From Candidatus Woesearchaeota archaeon (GTDB lineage: Archaea > Nanobdellota > Nanobdellia > Woesearchaeales > DSVV01), in contig JABHXF010000029.1 in assembly GCA_018657385.1 (NCBI GenBank), positions 4,214-68,213 of the forward strand: a stretch of DNA of 64,000 bases, written 5' to 3'. Below the pieces are notes generated by a model that saw only the letters and a program-made list of their open reading frames with translations, searched no databases and was not told the origin of the DNA. A program made the translations under genes and the position numbers. Shown here piece by piece: positions 4,878 through 39,700 of this stretch (within the stretch, counting starts at the first letter, position 1; every line of letters begins with the position of its first letter).

Positions 4878-4910
4878 TTTTATTTTGTCCTTTTTTTATG
4901 GGATTGTCGC

Positions 4911-5000
4911 AAAAAACAACAACAACAATGGCACAGACGAACTTTCTTTCAGAAAGTCCTACTCGCCTAATGGCTCGCCTGGCCTATGTTGTTGTTTTTT
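4911..5000. ncRNA. Conserved GC-rich structured element, copy A of 3 (unknown family)
   Basis: Shares the blocks GGCAC[A/G]GACG, TCCTACTCGCCT and GGCTCGCC[T/C]GGCC with 12654-12738 and 24477-24573. These are enclosed by an AACAACAA/TTGTTGTT outer stem with a flanking A-run and T-run. The internal hairpin is ACTTTC/GAAAGT. The strand is unresolved. Confidence 0.5.
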
Positions 5001-5026
5001 GCTTTTTTTATTATGACCTTATTTTA

Positions 5027-9844: not shown

Positions 9845-10125
9845 AGTGGACAGGCATGCCCAGTAATGGCCATATAAACGAGCCTGAGGTTTAACCCTCA
9901 TCCATTCTCAGTAAGGCTACCTCACAAGCACCTATGTAAAAACTTAATGCTGCTTCCGTCAGGATCTGACATAGTTCGTAAACACACAAGTCCTATGAGA
10001 CCAAACATCATGGGCAAGATAAGGACCTCCTGCCTGAATATATGACGCTTACCAAGCTTCAACTCCTGCATAAGTCCGTTACAGGTAACAGGTGAGGACT
10101 AACCACCCAGTCTAGCCTATCCAAG
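9845..10125 (-). ncRNA. ffs: Signal recognition particle RNA (archaeal 7S/SRP RNA)
   Basis: An ORF-free region richer in GC than its surroundings. The minus strand reads GUCAGAUCC-UGAC-GGAAGCAGC, matching the conserved helix-8 motif (compare E. coli 4.5S GUCAGGUCC-GGAA-GGAAGCAGC). The 5' GGAUAGGC (10115-10122) pairs with the 3' GCCUGUCC (9848-9855). At about 280 nt with an upstream TATA, it fits an archaeal SRP RNA. The ends are approximate. Confidence 0.75.
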
Positions 10126-10191: not shown

Positions 10192-10297
10192 AACAACAAT
10201 GGCGTTGATGCGACGGGGGTTGCCCCCTTCGGGGTGTCGCATAAGGCATTTTTCAGAAGGAAAAATGACTGTCAACAGCCATTATTGTTGTTGTTGG
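10192..10297. ncRNA. Structured element D: AACAACAATGGC/GCCATTATTGTTGTT outer stem enclosing two hairpins (unknown family)
   Basis: Same outer-stem sequence as elements A-C but a different interior. Interior pairings: GTTGA/TCAAC; a GC hairpin TGCGAC (10209-14) with GTCGCA (10236-41) containing GGGGG-TTG-CCCCC-TTCG-GGGG; and an AU hairpin CATTTTTC-AGAAG-GAAAAATG. Confidence 0.4.
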
Positions 10298-11124: not shown

Positions 11125-11922
11125 ATGATTGACTTTAATCTTAACCCAGTATTAGCATCAATAGGACCATTTGAAATACGTTATTATGGATTAGTTTATG
11201 TAATTGGCTTCTTATTAGTGTATTTATGGCTATGGTTAGGAATCAAAAAGAAGAAAATTGATCTTGAACAGGAAGAATTAGATACCTTATTGTTATACAT
11301 CATGTTAGGTGTTATAATTGGTTCTAGGTTATTCCATATTATATTCTGGCAACCAGTTTATTATTTTTCTAATCCTTTGCAAATACTTGCAGTATGGAAA
11401 GGTGGAATGGCATTTCATGGTGGATTAATTGGAAGTGCATTTGCAATCTGGTTGTTCTGTAGGAATAAATCAATAAAGGAAAAAGGTGTAACATTAGCAA
11501 AATTAGCTGATTATTTAGTTATACCTGGGATTATTGCATTAGCTTTGGGTAGAATTGCTAATTTCTTAAATGGTGAATTGCCTGGAATTATTACTAATGT
11601 TAATTGGTGCTTTAATTTTCCTGGTTATGAAGGTTGTAGACATCCATCTCAGCTTTATGGAGCATTGAAAAGATTTATTGTTTTAGGTATTGTTGTGATA
11701 GTTGATCAATTATATATTAAGAAAAGTATTATTGCGGGAAAAAGAATTAAAGATGGTTTCTTATTTTGGGTGTTTGTTGGATTAATGGGGATTGGAAGGT
11801 TTATTGTTAATTTCTATAGGGATGATGCTAGAGGGTTAGGATTAAGTTTAGGACAGTATTTAGGATTAGGAATGTTTGTTTTAAGTTTAATAATATACTT
11901 CAAATATTACAGAAAAAAATAA
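11125..11922 (+). CDS. lgt: Prolipoprotein diacylglyceryl transferase (bacterial-type Lgt)
   Basis: Polytopic membrane protein carrying Lgt strings: GPFEIRYYGLVYVIGFLL, GGMAFHGGLIG and GRIANFLNGELPG (the Lgt G-R-x-[GA]-N-F-x-N-x-E-L-x-G signature). Confidence 0.8.
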   Translation: MIDFNLNPVLASIGPFEIRYYGLVYVIGFLLVYLWLWLGIKKKKIDLEQEELDTLLLYIMLGVIIGSRLFHIIFWQPVYYFSNPLQILAVWKGGMAFHGGLIGSAFAIWLFCRNKSIKEKGVTLAKLADYLVIPGIIALALGRIANFLNGELPGIITNVNWCFNFPGYEGCRHPSQLYGALKRFIVLGIVVIVDQLYIKKSIIAGKRIKDGFLFWVFVGLMGIGRFIVNFYRDDARGLGLSLGQYLGLGMFVLSLIIYFKYYRKK

Positions 11923-11923
11923 T

Positions 11924-12601
11924 TTATTTCTCAACTACAAATACACAATGATCTTTTTCATATGGTTCTAGGTCCATATAATCAACAATATTAACTTCTG
12001 CTTCTTCTAATTGTCTTTTGACCATCTCAAATATCTTTATAGGTGATTTTGTAACATCAATACTTCTTGCTTTGATTGCTAAGAAACCACGACCACCAGT
12101 TTTTAAGAATTTTAGATTTTTTAGAAATATTTGAACTTGTGCTTTTTGTGCAATATCCTGAACAAGAAAATCACATTTACAAATTCTATAGTCATATTCT
12201 TCTGGTTTGTTACAATCTGCTAAAATAGGTACAATATTTTTCCTATCATGAGCTAGGAAATATAATTGTCTTAATACTCTTGGTGCAATATCTATTCCAA
12301 AAATTAAACCTTTCTTACCAATAACATCACTTACATGAGATACAGTTGTTCCAGAAGCAGCACCTAAATATAATACAAAATCACCCTCATTTAAATTTAA
12401 AGGACAAATGTTTTTAGCTAATGCAGCTCCTATTTTACTTTTAACAGTACTCCATTCTCTATATTCTGTTCCTTCATCATTGATTAGTTTCTCGTCATAA
12501 ACCTTCTTACCTTTAATAAGATTCTTGGTCCAAAATTTAATCCCCCATTTACTATCTTCTATAAATATTCCAGGGTTTTCAGTTTCTTCTAAGTCTTTCA
12601 T
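11924..12601 (-). CDS. flpA: Fibrillarin (rRNA/tRNA 2'-O-methyltransferase)
   Basis: LYLGAASGTTVSHVSDVIG, VPILADC and VQDIAQ. The true start is taken as ATG at 12601 (MKDLEET). The listed ORF start at 12691 lies inside structured element B and translates its stem (MQMSVRAIVVVF). Confidence 0.9.
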   Translation of the reverse strand: MKDLEETENPGIFIEDSKWGIKFWTKNLIKGKKVYDEKLINDEGTEYREWSTVKSKIGAALAKNICPLNLNEGDFVLYLGAASGTTVSHVSDVIGKKGLIFGIDIAPRVLRQLYFLAHDRKNIVPILADCNKPEEYDYRICKCDFLVQDIAQKAQVQIFLKNLKFLKTGGRGFLAIKARSIDVTKSPIKIFEMVKRQLEEAEVNIVDYMDLEPYEKDHCVFVVEK

Positions 12602-12653
12602 TGTAATTTTCCTTAATCTTTGTTTAAAACTTACTGTTTTGATGATGTAATCG

Positions 12654-12738
12654 TTAAAAACAACAACAATGGCACGGACGGACATTTGCAAGCAAATATC
12701 CTACTCGCCTTCGGCTCGCCCGGCCTTGTTGTTTTTAA
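12654..12738. ncRNA. Conserved GC-rich structured element, copy B of 3
   Basis: TTAAAAACAACAACAATGGCACGGACGGAC-ATTTGCAAGCAAAT-ATCCTACTCGCCTTCGGCTCGCCCGGCCTTGTTGTTTTTAA. It sits in the 147-nt gap between nop5 and fibrillarin. Confidence 0.5.
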
Positions 12739-12748
12739 CTCTTTATTA

Positions 12749-22995: not shown

Positions 22996-24398
22996 CATTA
23001 AAATTTTATAATACCTTTTCAAGGAAAAAAGATGTATTTAAACCTGTTAAAAAAGGAGAAGTAAGTCTTTATTCATGTGGTCCAACGGTTTATCATTATG
23101 CCCATGTTGGGAATTTTAGAGCATTTATGTTTTCTGATATCTTAAAGAGATATTTAATATTTAAGGGATTTAAAATAAAACATGTTATGAATATTACTGA
23201 TGTTGATGATAAAACAATTAGGGATTCTCAAAAAGAAGGAAAAACACTTAAAAAATTCACAGAATTCTATACTAAAGCATTTTTAGATGATTTAATTGTT
23301 CTTAATATTATTCCTGCTGATATTATGCCTAAAGCAACTGATTGTATTCCTGACATGATTAAATTAATTCATAAATTGCTTGCAAAGGATGTTGCTTACA
23401 AAGCAAAAGATGGGATTTATTTTAATATTAATAAATTTAAAAATTATGGGGAACTTTCAAAAATAGATTTAACCAAGACTAAAAAAGTTTCTAGAATTAG
23501 CACAGATGAATATGATAAAACTAATCCTAATGATTTTGCACTATGGAAGTTTTGGAGTAAAGAAGATGGAAATGTTTCTTGGGATGCTGATTTTGGTAAG
23601 GGAAGACCAGGATGGCATATAGAATGTTCAGCAATGTCATCTAAAAATTTAGGGGATAGTTTTGATATTCATACTGGTGGGGTTGATCTAATATTTCCTC
23701 ATCATGAAAATGAGATTGCACAATCTGAAGCAGCCTCTGGTAAGAAATTTGTTAAGTATTGGTTGCATAATGAATATATTCTTGTAGATGGGAAAAAGAT
23801 GAGCAAAAGTTTGGGGAATTTCTACACTTTAAGAGATATATTGAATAAAGGGTATTCAGCTAAAGCAATTAGGTATGTATTATTGGCAACACATTATCGT
23901 CAACAATTAAACTTTACTTTAGATGGTGTGGGGAGTGCTGAAAATAGTATTGATCGTCTTAAAGAGTTTACCGAAAAGCTTAGGCGAAAAGTAAAGGGTA
24001 AAGGAAGTTCTAAAGGGAAAGGACATGAAGGTACAGATGATTTAATTGAATTAACAAGAAAATCTTTTGAAAAAGCAATGGATGACGACTTGAATATTTC
24101 AGAAGGCCTGGGTGTGTTTTTTGAATTTGTAAAAGAAGTTAATAAAATCATGGATATTATTAGTAAGAAAGATGCAAAAGCTCTTCTTAATTTTTCAGAT
24201 CAGATTGATTCTATTTTTGGATTAATGCATTTTGAGGACGATAAGATTCCAAATAGTGTAATTAAGATTGCAGAACAAAGACAAAAAGCAAGAGCTGAAA
24301 AAGACTTTAAAAAAGCAGATGAGTTTAGAGATAAACTTAAAGAAAAAGGTTATGAAGTTAAAGATACTAAAGATGGATTTGTTCTTAAGGTTATATGA
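22992..24398 (+). CDS. cysS: Cysteine--tRNA ligase
   Basis: Class I motifs CGPTVYHYAHVGNFR (HIGH variant) and KMSKSLGN, with WHIECS as the zinc/cysteine-binding region. Confidence 0.95.
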   Translation: MTLKFYNTFSRKKDVFKPVKKGEVSLYSCGPTVYHYAHVGNFRAFMFSDILKRYLIFKGFKIKHVMNITDVDDKTIRDSQKEGKTLKKFTEFYTKAFLDDLIVLNIIPADIMPKATDCIPDMIKLIHKLLAKDVAYKAKDGIYFNINKFKNYGELSKIDLTKTKKVSRISTDEYDKTNPNDFALWKFWSKEDGNVSWDADFGKGRPGWHIECSAMSSKNLGDSFDIHTGGVDLIFPHHENEIAQSEAASGKKFVKYWLHNEYILVDGKKMSKSLGNFYTLRDILNKGYSAKAIRYVLLATHYRQQLNFTLDGVGSAENSIDRLKEFTEKLRRKVKGKGSSKGKGHEGTDDLIELTRKSFEKAMDDDLNISEGLGVFFEFVKEVNKIMDIISKKDAKALLNFSDQIDSIFGLMHFEDDKIPNSVIKIAEQRQKARAEKDFKKADEFRDKLKEKGYEVKDTKDGFVLKVI

Positions 24399-24476
24399 TT
24401 TTTACTTCTTTTTTACTAGGTCCAGTGGATGTGTTTCTCATGAATTTTTTAATTTAATAAAAGAGACTATATTAAT

Positions 24477-24573
24477 AAAAAAATAATAACAACATAGGCA
24501 CGGACGAACTTTTCTCATTTCATTCGAAAAATCCTACTCGCCTATCGGCTCGCCCGGCCATGTTATTATTTTT
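24477..24573. ncRNA. Conserved GC-rich structured element, copy C of 3
   Basis: AAAAATAATAACAACATAGGCACGGACGAAC-TTTTCTCATTTCATTCGAAAA-ATCCTACTCGCCTATCGGCTCGCCCGGCCATGTTATTATTTTT, in the convergent gap after cysS. Confidence 0.5.
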
Positions 24574-36711: not shown

Positions 36712-39700
36712 ATGAGAAGAGAATATAAAGTAATTCTTATTATTTTAATGCTTGTTTTAGCTGTATTTCTTACTGCTTGTGATGATTTAGTTGGTGAAGC
36801 ATATAGGGATGCTAGCAAAAGAGTAAAGGGAACAAGATCATTACCTGCTTATGATGAAAGTAAGGTAGCACTTAAATGTAATGATGGTATTTGGAATGGC
36901 AAAGAACAAGGGGTTGATTGTGGTAGGGCATGTGGAAAAAGCTGCTGTAGAAATGGATTTCATGATAAAAATTTAGGTGAATGTGATATTGATCGTGGTG
37001 TTAATTGCAAGAATGGGTGTGTTTGGGAAAAAACAAATGGCCCTGGTGGTGGAAAAACATTAACTATTGCTATTGATCCAATTAATACTAATATATTGTA
37101 TACAGGCACTTATCCATTAACAAATAATGAATTTTATCCTTATGATGGTGGAGTTTACAAAAGTTATGATGCTGGGTTGACATGGCAAGAGAAAAATAAA
37201 GGTATTGATAATAAGGAGATTTGGGCTATGAGGATTGATCCTAACAATAATAATATTATTTATGCTGGTTCAAATGATGGTGATATTTACAAGTCAACAG
37301 ATGCAGCTGAAAGTTGGGTAAAAGTTAAAGACAAAGTGGATAATTTTGAAACTATATTTTCTATTGAAGTTGATTCTGAAAATTCTAATCTTGTTTTAGC
37401 TGGAAGTAGGTATGGTAGGATATATAGATCAGAAGATGGTGGGAATAGTTGGGAAACAATTTATACTGAGGGAAGTATAGAAAAAGGTGGGGTAATAAGT
37501 TCAATTCATATAAGTCCACATTATAGTAATATTATTTTTGCAACTTCTGGATTTATGGATGTTTGGGATTCTAATTCAGATTATGGTCTTTTTAAGAGTA
37601 TAGACAATGGTAAAACTTGGACTCCAATTACAAATGGTTTAGAAGGAAATGTTAATTTTGGTGATACTGCTTTTGATCCTGAAAATGAAAATGTTGTTTA
37701 TGCAGTAAATGGTTTAATTGGGAAAGAACAAGGTAATATTTTTAAAAGTGATAATCTAGGAGAATCTTGGTCAATAATAAATATTCCTGGTGGATATCCT
37801 GAATTTGGTGGCTTTACTTCTATTGAAATTCATTATGAACAATCAAATATGATGTATGTTAGTGGAGATGGAATGACTTTATTAAAATCAATAGATTCTG
37901 GAGAGACTTGGGAATATATGACAAGCGGTGTAATGAGTTCAGATAATGGTGGGAGCTTTATTACTGGTATTTCTTTAGATCCAGATAATCCTAATAAAAT
38001 TTATGTTGCTTCTTATGCATCAGGAAATTTTCGTTCAGTTAATGGTGGAGAAACTTGGGAAGAAATAAATAATCATCTTACTTTCTCTTATACAAAAGCT
38101 CTTGCACCTGATTATTCTATTAGGGGTGGAGGGGGTGTTTATGCAAGTTCTTTTACTAATGGTATTCATAGAACTAGTGGTAGTTTAGACTGGCAGCGTA
38201 TTTTAAATAATAATTTAGGAATAAATGGGTTTGCTAGGCTAGCAACAACTCCAGCAGATATTAATTTAATTTATGGTGTTGGTGATTTAATATTAACAGC
38301 TGGGAAAACTTCAACCGAAGAATTTAGGGTTTCTTATGATAAAGGAAAAAATTGGCAAATAATTACTTTGCCTTTGTTAACTACTAAATTTTTAACAATA
38401 GTAAAAGATCCAACAAGGGTTCCTGTTATGAGAGGCGGAAAAAATGTTTTTAGTATGGGAGCAGAAGTAATTGCTACAACAGAAGCACATGTATTTTCAG
38501 CTGCAATTGATTCTACTAATGCTAATACTGCATATGCTGCAACTATTGATGGTGGTGTTTATAGAACAGATGATAAAGGCCAAACATGGAATCAAAAGAA
38601 TAATGGTTTAGGGGGACAAACAGATATTAGAACAGTTGCTATTGATCCCTTAAATTCTAACAAAGTTTATGCTGGTGCAGTTGGTGACAATCCCAAAGTT
38701 TATTATTCAAACAATAAAGGTGAATTATGGCAAATACTTAATGATGATTTAACATTTACTACTATTTCGGGTCATTCTCAATTACAAATACATCCAGATA
38801 ATAAAAACAAAGTATATGCTGGAACATGGGGTGGTGGTACTTTTATGTCTACAGATGCAGGAAAAAATTGGGATCGTTTAGGAACAGATAATTGGGATGC
38901 ACCTTTCTCTCCAACTTGTCTTGCTATTTCTCCAAGTGATCCTAATGTAATATATGCATGTGATAGAACCAGCCCACAAATTTGGCGTCACAACAATGCT
39001 GGAGTTGATGAAGGGCCACACAATTGGTTTCCTTATTATAGCTTTGAAGAAGATGAGTATATGACTACATCTGCTGTTGCTGTTCATCCAACTGATTCTA
39101 ATAAGATTTATATGGCTGCATTTAAACCACCTATTGCTCATGGTGGTGGGTTACATCTAAAAGATGGTGGTGAAATTGTTGATCTTGGAAAAGATTTACC
39201 AAGGTCTGTATTAGATATAGCTATTAATCCTAGTTATCCAAACATTATTTATGTTACTTTACATGTTCATGGTGTTTACAAAAGTATTAATGGTGGGCAA
39301 ACATGGAAGCAATTAGATGATAAAGGTAATGGTTTGCCAAGAACTGGGTTTTTTGATATTGATATTGATCCAATGGATACTGATATAATTTATACTGCTG
39401 GACTATGTGGGGAATTGCCTGATTATATTATGCCACAAAATCTAGTTCCTTTTATACTACAAAAATTAGGTGTTATTAAGAATATAGACCCAAATGCAAA
39501 ATGTGGTGTCTATAAGTCAATTAATGCTGGAGAAGATTGGGAATTAGTTTTGGAAACAATTGGAGCTGCTACAGGAATTGAAATTGATGGAAATGATCAT
39601 AATGTGTTATATGTTTCAGATTCAAGTGGAGGAGTTTGGGTAAGTACTAATGGTGGAGAAAATTGGGTACAAGAAAATACAGGTGGGGATGGTTTAGATA

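Follow-up and report, generated by a model that had tools for sequence, protein, structure and literature searches.

The structured element that lies between nop5 and fibrillarin in the window (the whole stretch of 64,000 nucleotides analysed here) is an ordinary copy, called copy B below, of an unusual and undescribed repeat family. The reading that we favour, and that we hold to be probable, is that copy B belongs to a high-copy family of structured intergenic repeats that is turning over, and that it was inserted between two genes that are normally tightly arranged. Each unit of the family is built in layers: an A/U-rich stem, an asymmetric linker and a GC-rich, near-invariant three-way junction whose fold forms on one strand only. 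Judging from genome comparisons, the family appears to be limited to a single family-level group among the Woesearchaeota-type DPANN archaea, where it behaves as a spreading, turning-over element rather than as a fixed gene.

Copy B is located 9 nt past the nop5 stop codon and 51 nt ahead of the fibrillarin ATG, in a gap of 147 nt (Table 1). The covariance model of the family (R1) matches it over the full model length with 102.5 bits (E = 5e-21). Its outer stem is A/U-rich and consists of the 14 bp of a perfect inverted repeat, GUUAAAAACAACAA / UUGUUGUUUUUAAC. Inside it, P1 is GGCCGG / CCG-U-GCC, P2 is GCC-GAA-GGC with the invariant GA...GA on both sides, the junction is GUA and P3 is GGAUAUUUGC-UU-GCAAAUGUCC; the three core helices were recovered by folding with DNA parameters. 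The minus strand folds with -40.4 kcal/mol, a stability that 0 of 200 shuffles reached (-22.4 +/- 3.4; z = -5.3), and the plus strand with -32.9 kcal/mol. The inverted repeat and the reading of the core place the element within 1 nt of where the preliminary description had put it, and its 87 nt do occupy the nop5-fibrillarin gap in the way that was described there.

Table 1. Positions of copy B, its parts, the adjoining genes and the related elements in the window
Feature	Position	Strand	Evidence or remark
Copy A	4909-5002	minus	inverted repeat I10; between two co-directional minus-strand genes; arm type as in copy B
SRP RNA	9848-10122		Rfam match
Element D, long-P2 subtype of the same family	10192-10289	plus	adjoins the SRP RNA gene
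Fibrillarin, true ORF from ATG 12601, 225 aa	11924-12601	minus	Pfam Fibrillarin, 6.4e-76, residues 8-224 on profile 6-224
False extension of 30 codons at the N-terminus of the longest fibrillarin ORF, start TTG 12691	12602-12691	minus	longest-ORF versus homology-supported start
AAGGA, Shine-Dalgarno-like	12610-12614	minus	9-13 nt ahead of the fibrillarin ATG
TATA-like TTTAAA, candidate own leaderless-type promoter of fibrillarin	12623-12628	minus	starts 27 nt before the ATG
Copy B, whole element (outer stem and three-way-junction core)	12653-12739	minus	87 nt; inverted repeat I25, fold, covariance model
Copy B, 3′ arm UUGUUGUUUUUAAC, U5 at 12656-12660	12653-12666	minus	hairpin, then oligo-U run
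Copy B, unpaired 3′ linker AUUG	12667-12670	minus	read directly
Copy B, GC-rich core, 55 nt	12671-12725	minus	read from sequence
Copy B, 5′ arm, RNA-sense GUUAAAAACAACAA	12726-12739	minus	100% complementary to 12653-12666
nop5, 309 aa, stop TAA	12749-13678	minus	Pfam Nop, 2.9e-52
Copy C	~24479-24573	minus	convergent gap; followed on its own strand by module X at ~24400-24440

The Pfam matches also uphold the identification of the two genes and of the ATG at 12601 given in that description. This ATG is the real start of fibrillarin because, counted from it, residue 8 falls on position 6 of the Pfam profile, and because the alignments of the homologues, found in 39 of the 41 relatives, begin at residues 3-12. 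The start of the longest ORF lies within the element, as had been recognised, and this call is indeed corrupted: the false extension is a translation of P3 and the 3′ arm of copy B, reading MQMSVRAIVVVF... Two signals precede the true start. Across the genome TTTAWA starts most often at -30/-31 from the ATG, which indicates leaderless mRNAs, and starts between -33 and -28 are frequent; the TTTAAA of fibrillarin, at -27, lies 1 nt beyond this range and is a plausible leaderless-type promoter of its own. The AAGGA is compatible with translation of fibrillarin from a read-through transcript; upstream of operon-internal genes, AGGA (17% vs 6%) and AAGG (23% vs 14%) are enriched genome-wide. With a TATA-like box and AAGGA both in place, an own promoter, read-through or both are possible.

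The motif GGCGAGCC-N3-4-GGCGAG has three occurrences in the window, against a chance expectation of 0. All three are on the minus strand, and this shared-motif search bears out the earlier report of copies A and C, which lie on that strand as well. Throughout the genome, which is of Woesearchaeota type, 1.54 Mb long and of 29% GC, the repeat cores form GC-rich islands. The core motif GGCGAGCC-N3-4-GGCGAGUAGGA has 26 exact occurrences in it and 79 matches when three substitutions are permitted. An nhmmer profile search gave 120 matches, 97 of them full length, and a covariance model trained on 40 distinct copies gave 103. In total, the genome carries about 100 full copies, essentially all of them intergenic.

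The units, 77-110 nt in length, share one architecture. The outer stem of all copies is A/U-rich, has 12-16 bp and takes the form (A)nAACAAC / GUUGUU(U)n, and in all of the 93 copies that were read directly the 3′ side is longer by 3-4 unpaired nt. P1 is made of GGC, C, R and G paired with C, Y, G, a bulged U and then GCC. It is followed by a short P2 between the invariant GA...GA, by UA, and by P3, whose hairpin starts with GGA and has from 4 to over 20 bp, with GU after it. The sense strand was the more stable one in 90 of 90 copies tested (mean -38.5 vs -30.5 kcal/mol). Summed over the copies, the pairs of P3 are 647 Watson-Crick, 57 G-U and 2 A-C; position 5 pairs as G-C in 49 copies and as A-U in 38 and is never mismatched, and P2 occurs in five Watson-Crick combinations. 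In an alignment of 40 copies, 99.5% of the base-pair cells pair, compared with 86% in shuffles and 39-50% with slid partners, and double compensatory changes are present at 17 pairs. Two pairings at the junction, that of positions 7-8 with 22-23 and that of the same positions with the 3′ GU, each pair in 100% of the copies. The arm pairs covary family-wide, with double changes in 7 of 12 pairs, and since the arm ends both vary and covary, it is the pairing and not the letters that is conserved outside the core. The core itself is under strong constraint, because an orthologous copy in this genome and in its congener has 55 of 56 core nucleotides in common (the arms are nearly the same) and the core consensus is almost unchanged in the congener, despite an average identity of 64% between orthologous proteins.

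Around this core the family is variable. The arms fall into type 1 (AAAUCCAACAAC), type 2 (GAAAAUAACAAC) and type 3 (AAAAAACAAC), of which type 3 has T5-6 on both strands and types 1 and 2 have T3-4 only. A hairpin followed by oligo-U, the pattern of a terminator, is restricted to type 3, which accounts for 27 of 93 copies (20 of the 27 solo) and includes copies A and B. The long-P2 form, exemplified by element D, is one subtype, and a minor form has (UCA)n arms. In 60 of 97 full copies a second repeated module follows on the same strand, either module X (...GAAACAYG, a GC hairpin, CCUAGU and an A-run) or module Y (...ACAAAAAGAGCC-UGCC-GGCCUGUU, then an A-run). This companion adjoins the stop codon of an opposite-strand gene and, read in the sense of that gene, consists of a T-run, a GC hairpin and a T-run. 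Partial copies are common and comprise the 5′ arm with core positions 1-11 right upstream of a full copy as well as tandem arrays of 3′ halves, and modules are shuffled between copies. One contig terminates within a repeat arm.

The distribution of the family was followed with the covariance model. Any copy was detected in 15 of 41 relatives and none in 26. Next to the 103 copies of this genome there are 78 in the congener, 28, 19, 14, 11, 11, 8 and 6 in seven other genomes of the same order, and 1-2 in six further relatives. A class-wide sample of 250 genomes, searched with reduced sensitivity, returned two weak single matches only. A loose-pattern search of public contigs gave mostly chance matches in GC-rich bacteria; the matches retested with the covariance model were those in two Candidatus Woesearchaeota MAGs, and both carry true copies. 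Viral carriage was considered and discarded: 80 IMG/VR contigs fit the loose pattern, and the covariance model recognised 0 true copies among them.

Turnover is apparent from the comparison of synteny with 400 kb of the congener, in which 120 gene pairs are adjacent in both genomes. Among these, 17 gaps are occupied, eight here only, six in the congener only and three in both, so that 14 of the 17 are unshared, and at one of the three shared sites the copies lie in opposite orientation between similar arms. The empty counterparts of occupied gaps measure 0-52 nt, and therefore copies entered tight junctions elsewhere too. No target-site duplication is consistent in the AT-rich flanks. These, including the empty sites of the congener, have diverged too far between the two species for alignment, so that neither a duplication nor a clean empty-site junction was legible. 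Retention at three of the 17 sites, together with the match of 55 in 56 core nucleotides, exceeds what a purely selfish element needs.

For copy B, the insertion can be connected to a predicted consequence for the two genes. The nop5 transcript would gain, 9 nt after its stop codon, a structure of -40 kcal/mol followed by U5, which by sequence and predicted fold is the arrangement of a hairpin-plus-oligo-U terminator. REP elements in bacterial operons stop polymerase or shield 3′ ends. By analogy, the structure and the U5 of copy B should terminate the archaeal polymerase or block 3′-exonucleases. Because its subtype has U-run arms, copy B probably acts to end the nop5 transcript or to stabilise it, and to uncouple fibrillarin. 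The expression of fibrillarin would then rest with the TATA-like box at -27, with residual read-through combined with AAGGA, or with both. A role of the U5-6-arm subtype in 3′-end formation or insulation is a possible one.

Carried over to the whole family, the same idea would make the repeat a host-domesticated, generic element that terminates or protects mRNA 3′ ends, with copy B insulating nop5 from fibrillarin. We judge this to be unlikely, though it draws on several features of where the copies are placed. The neighbours of the copies are unrelated housekeeping genes in every orientation, and the earlier suggestion that any role would be generic rather than gene-specific has held up, with about 100 copies beside unrelated genes. 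Of the 91 copies with two called neighbour genes, 74 abut a gene 3′ end on at least one side, and 28 lie in convergent gaps where 12-17 are expected (p = 7e-6 to 8e-3); 17 lie in divergent gaps. A TATA box at the usual place precedes 11 of 42 genes downstream of an element, 75 of 314 genes after other long gaps and 8 of 240 operon-internal genes; by this rate element gaps look like transcription-unit boundaries. The T5-6 of type 3 arms on both strands and the retention of some copies at orthologous sites point in the same direction. The enrichment in convergent gaps is as compatible with a host 3′-end function as with tolerated insertion sites, which counts against the preferred reading. On the other side, the 46 copies in co-directional gaps are more often antisense (32) than sense (14) to the flanking genes (p = 0.011), a bias that differs between type 3 (8 sense to 4 antisense) and the other types (6 to 28; p = 0.003), and the T3-4 of types 1 and 2 also speaks against a family-wide function of this kind. 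The invariant three-way junction would remain unexplained, because archaeal termination requires an oligo-T run alone. Finally, 26 of 41 relatives do without the element, 15 having a tight nop5-fibrillarin junction, and most of the occupied sites are not common to the congener.

The junction is also the part of the repeat on which a further explanation depends, namely that the copies are a multi-copy family of independently transcribed small RNAs whose junction (tandem G.A, UAGGA, GUC) binds a protein such as an L7Ae-type kink-turn binder, the position beside nop5 being incidental. The strict folding on one strand with G-U pairs, the invariance of the junction letters across two species with 64% identical proteins, the GC-rich islands in a genome of 29% GC and the TTTAAA at the start of type 1 arms are all in keeping with it, as is a minor subfamily with CUGAUGA...GUGA beside P1, reminiscent of C and D boxes (such C/D-like letters occur in three variant copies). 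Nevertheless, we regard it as improbable. A search for a fixed promoter or terminator geometry found none; the TATA of type 1 arms would initiate inside the core, about 30 nt downstream, and destroy the stem; many copies have runs of T5-6 within P3; and RNA genes would not be expected to occur as half-copies and tandem fragments. No Rfam family matches either: at gathering thresholds SRP RNA alone matched in the window, and E-value searches with copy B and six variant copies returned noise only. ARAGORN reported neither tRNA nor tmRNA in the window, and a tRNA-derived origin was rejected for want of a cloverleaf there. A simple kink-turn looks unlikely too. The tandem G.A is present and GA...GA is invariant, but the positions equivalent to the bulge covary as Watson-Crick pairs (33 copies C-G, 7 U-A), and the 3-nt bulge appears to be missing because positions 7-8 covary with 22-23.

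Under the preferred reading, that of a repeat family with turnover, the conserved junction is a candidate recognition site of a factor that copies or maintains the element, and recognition by such a factor is the most likely role of its invariance. A bolder version, to which we give little credence, takes the repeat as a new class of archaeal structured module: the invariant junction would dock a lineage-specific protein, and modules X and Y would complete portable cassettes that, in these reduced genomes, define unit boundaries and transcript 3′ ends and that are copied without known Y1, TnpB or integron enzymes. If that were true, copy B would be a cassette that rewired an ancient nop5-fibrillarin operon.

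The preliminary description had also considered that copy B might be a processing, attenuation or autoregulatory site specific to nop5 and fibrillarin and read by the box C/D proteins, and had named the corresponding spacers of relatives as the place to look. The location between the two genes and the presence of structured repeats in the same spacer of the three closest genomes would suit such a site. The spacers nevertheless tell against it, by the very criterion set there. Among 22 relatives with nop5 directly upstream of fibrillarin, 15 have a tight junction, either an overlap of 4-38 nt or an unstructured spacer of 9-24 nt, and two of these 15 hold 19-28 copies of the repeat elsewhere. 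The covariance model matches the nop5-fibrillarin spacer in three genomes only: here in sense orientation; in the congener in antisense, 30 nt past the nop5 stop, with an extra gene after it; and in a neighbouring genus in sense, in the long-P2 form and beside a different, three-hairpin repeat. In a fourth close genome the spacer contains an unrelated 113-nt palindrome. With the roughly 100 copies beside unrelated genes added, the gene-specific reading is contradicted by the comparative data, and we hold it to be very improbable. The simplest history consistent with these junctions would be a single ancestral break: the overlap would have been broken once, by an insertion in the ancestor of the clade that holds the genus of this genome and its closest neighbour, and the gap so opened would later have been a place where structured repeats land and turn over. 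The tight junctions, overlapping or with 9-24 nt, are those of relatives outside this clade.

A self-cleaving, hammerhead-related ribozyme borne by the repeat is hardly credible, although about a quarter of the copies (~24%) read GGAUGAG-stem-CGAAU, three read CUGAUGAG-stem-CGAAU, near the hammerhead core letters, and GUC follows P3, because G, C and G replace the essential A6, U7 and A14 in 71% of copies, the equivalent of U4 is paired with perfect covariation (the 49 G-C and 38 A-U pairs given above), A15.1 is U, and no hammerhead or other ribozyme model matched at E <= 10, the best-looking variants included.

The family matters beyond this locus. With about 100 elements here and 6-78 in each of eight relatives, it can give rise to false N-terminal extensions and break contigs. 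The searchable full-text literature on Woesearchaeota and DPANN archaea yielded no earlier description of such abundant structured repeats. The nop5-fibrillarin pair is, moreover, a natural experiment, in which two genes that normally overlap and are co-translated have been parted by 147 nt that include a hairpin with a U-run, and therefore what the element does to archaeal transcription can be tested directly.

Several known systems resemble the repeat in part. The core recalls domain II of the hammerhead, the kink-turn and the k-junction, in which a hairpin is extended by tandem sheared G.A at a three-way junction, but its core letters and pairing do not match those that a hammerhead, or apparently a simple kink-turn, needs. 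Like the attC sites of integrons, the repeat conserves structure more than sequence, has asymmetric extrahelical bases, lies at gene 3′ ends and would suit recognition as a folded single strand, and the type 1 arms ATCCAAC...GTTGGAT happen to fit RYYYAAC / GTTRRRY. However, attC sites form one-directional arrays beside intI and have a variable tip, whereas the copies here are dispersed, in mixed orientation, invariant at the tip and next to housekeeping genes. An identity with attC was rejected on the mixed orientations, on the invariant tip and on the search for an integron integrase, whose best match scored 111 bits against a cut-off of 265. The GC clusters of yeast mitochondria are likewise short, GC-rich, hairpin-forming, mobile and intergenic in a very AT-rich genome, and strains gain and lose them rapidly (PMC4478555). 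These clusters, however, belong to a eukaryotic organelle, are shorter than the present repeat and are not known to have a conserved multi-helix junction.

The closest parallels are found among bacterial repeats. With REPs, BIMEs and REPINs the family has in common that its members are extragenic palindromes in high copy number, richer in GC than the DNA around them, that fold on one strand, occur singly or in inverted pairs and vary widely in number between related genomes. REPs within operons or at 3′ ends reportedly stabilise the upstream mRNA or attenuate transcription. They are, however, simple hairpins of 20-40 nt with a fixed GTAG/CGTC foot, whereas the present repeat, at 77-110 nt, is three times as long and branched, with a three-way junction, and the GUAG before its P3 reads AUAG in 21 of 87 copies (~24%). 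REPs also flank a single-copy RAYT gene, and here no cognate Y1 gene was found. The one Y1_Tnp gene of this genome belongs to an ordinary IS200 whose hairpins are its own and unrelated to the repeat, and the nearest repeat copy is 1.1 kb off, past another gene. The congener, with its 78 copies, has no Y1 transposase; a Y1 gene is present in 5 of 9 repeat-rich genomes and in 10 of 32 others, a co-occurrence that is not significant; and no copy lies near any of nine Y1 loci retrieved from relatives (flanks of about 1.5 kb on each side). Mobilisation by a RAYT or IS200 was rejected on these grounds. TnpB is absent from this genome. That these searches turned up no mobilising enzyme counts against the preferred reading.

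Structured MITE-like repeats such as Correia/CREE, ERIC/IRU, RUP and BOX are intergenic, 100-150 nt long and have inverted ends (PMC3184786). As in the present family, they form long RNA hairpins between genes, and they can create terminators, promoters and processing sites (PMC3184786). A MITE carries terminal inverted repeats of fixed sequence that it shares with a parent IS, and target-site duplications flank it; here, by contrast, there are at least three arm types and the terminal base pairs covary, and neither an ORF between a pair of half-elements nor an ORF-bearing copy was found. A consistent duplication could not be made out in the diverged flanks. The repeat is a member of neither group because their defining features, the RAYT and the fixed foot in one case and the fixed ends and the parent IS in the other, were looked for and are not those of this family. 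We therefore regard it as an undescribed, lineage-restricted family that resembles REPs and MITEs but stands outside both. Its REP-like lifestyle, its conserved branched core and the lack of a recognisable transposase together point to either a new mobilisation mechanism or a new RNA- or ssDNA-binding factor.

Modules X and Y, two further repeats of the genome under study with about 29 and up to 54 occurrences, respectively, lie downstream of 60 of the 97 full-length three-way-junction copies, and both also occur alone. Module X runs from ...GAAACAYG through a GC hairpin and CCTAGT into an A-run, and module Y from ...ACAAAAAGAGCC-TGCC-GGCCTGTT into an A-run. Wherever such a module lies downstream of a copy, it adjoins the stop of the opposite-strand gene, on whose sense strand it reads as a T-run, a hairpin and a second T-run, which is a terminator-like arrangement. 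Genome-wide, the TATA-like motif TTTAWA showed a sharp peak of starts at -30/-31 from ATG codons, with a start between -33 and -28 in 209 of 806 genes. The position of this peak indicates leaderless mRNAs for most first genes.

Comparison with the congener (G001) revealed an orthologous copy kept in both species, with 55/56 core nt identical and the arms nearly alike; the proteins encoded on either side of it share 67% and 89% identity. In one syntenic gap, the core orientations were opposite between similar arms, which suggests an in-place inversion between the inverted arms. Truncated copies are of two kinds: a 5′ arm followed by core nt 1-11 (ending in GAG), joined directly to a full copy of a different arm type (class of outer-stem sequence), and 3′ halves plus flank, arranged in tandem arrays. 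Their breakpoints are concentrated at two core positions.

The genome has a single Y1 transposase gene of the IS200 type, bordered by GC hairpins of its own, CCTCGGGC...GCCCGAGG and CACACAC...GTGTGTG. The last bases of its contig, which ends at 38031, read ...AATAACAACA and resemble the beginning of a repeat arm. The gene for the genome's Xer-like tyrosine recombinase has a copy 35 nt upstream, a proximity that is probably a coincidence.

Locations of the features discussed (C, contig of the genome under study)
Feature	Location	Strand
Module X/Y, example	C55:28600-28680 (window about 24390-24470)	
Module X/Y, example	C3:37278-37320	
Module X/Y, example	C11:1764-1785	
Orthologous copy	C55:70383-70490	
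Orthologous copy, congener	G001 C14:60744-60851	
Inverted copy	C14:8296-8394	-
Inverted copy, congener	G001 C15:44677-44792	+
Truncated copy	C14:2989	
Truncated copy	C32:25659	
Truncated copy	C59:6094	
Truncated copy	C11:8164-8330	
Truncated copy	C33:66590-66720	
Truncated copy	C36:21801-21974	
Y1 transposase gene	C3:37417-37911	-
Copy near Xer-like gene	C40:9505-9611	
Xer-like gene	C40:9645-10412	
ORF adjoining fibrillarin	window 11125-11922	+
SRP RNA gene	window 9848-10122	-
Long-P2 copy	window 10192-10289	+
Minor subfamily	C22:16817-16887	
Minor subfamily	C59:10047-10136	
Minor subfamily	C33:30014-30080	

On visual inspection of its sequence, the ORF adjoining fibrillarin resembles an Lgt (prolipoprotein diacylglyceryl transferase) of the bacterial type, which is unusual for an archaeon. 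In the neighbouring genus, other structured repeats fill the nop5-fibrillarin spacer at loci L029 (relative G018) and L031 (relative G011); one spacer repeat is a 113-nt palindrome, GGAGGTTTGAGGTA...TACCTCAAACC, and another is a three-hairpin element with arms AAAAATGCCAACAAT.

A distance of 70 nt separates the SRP RNA gene from a copy of the long-P2 subtype of the three-way-junction family, and five other long-P2 copies are found elsewhere in the genome. The arms of a minor subfamily are (TCA)n/(TGA)n and its core reads CUGAUGAG...CGAAUAGG...GUGA. An Rfam search with this subfamily gave no match; the letters of its core are similar to C/D boxes and to the hammerhead core.
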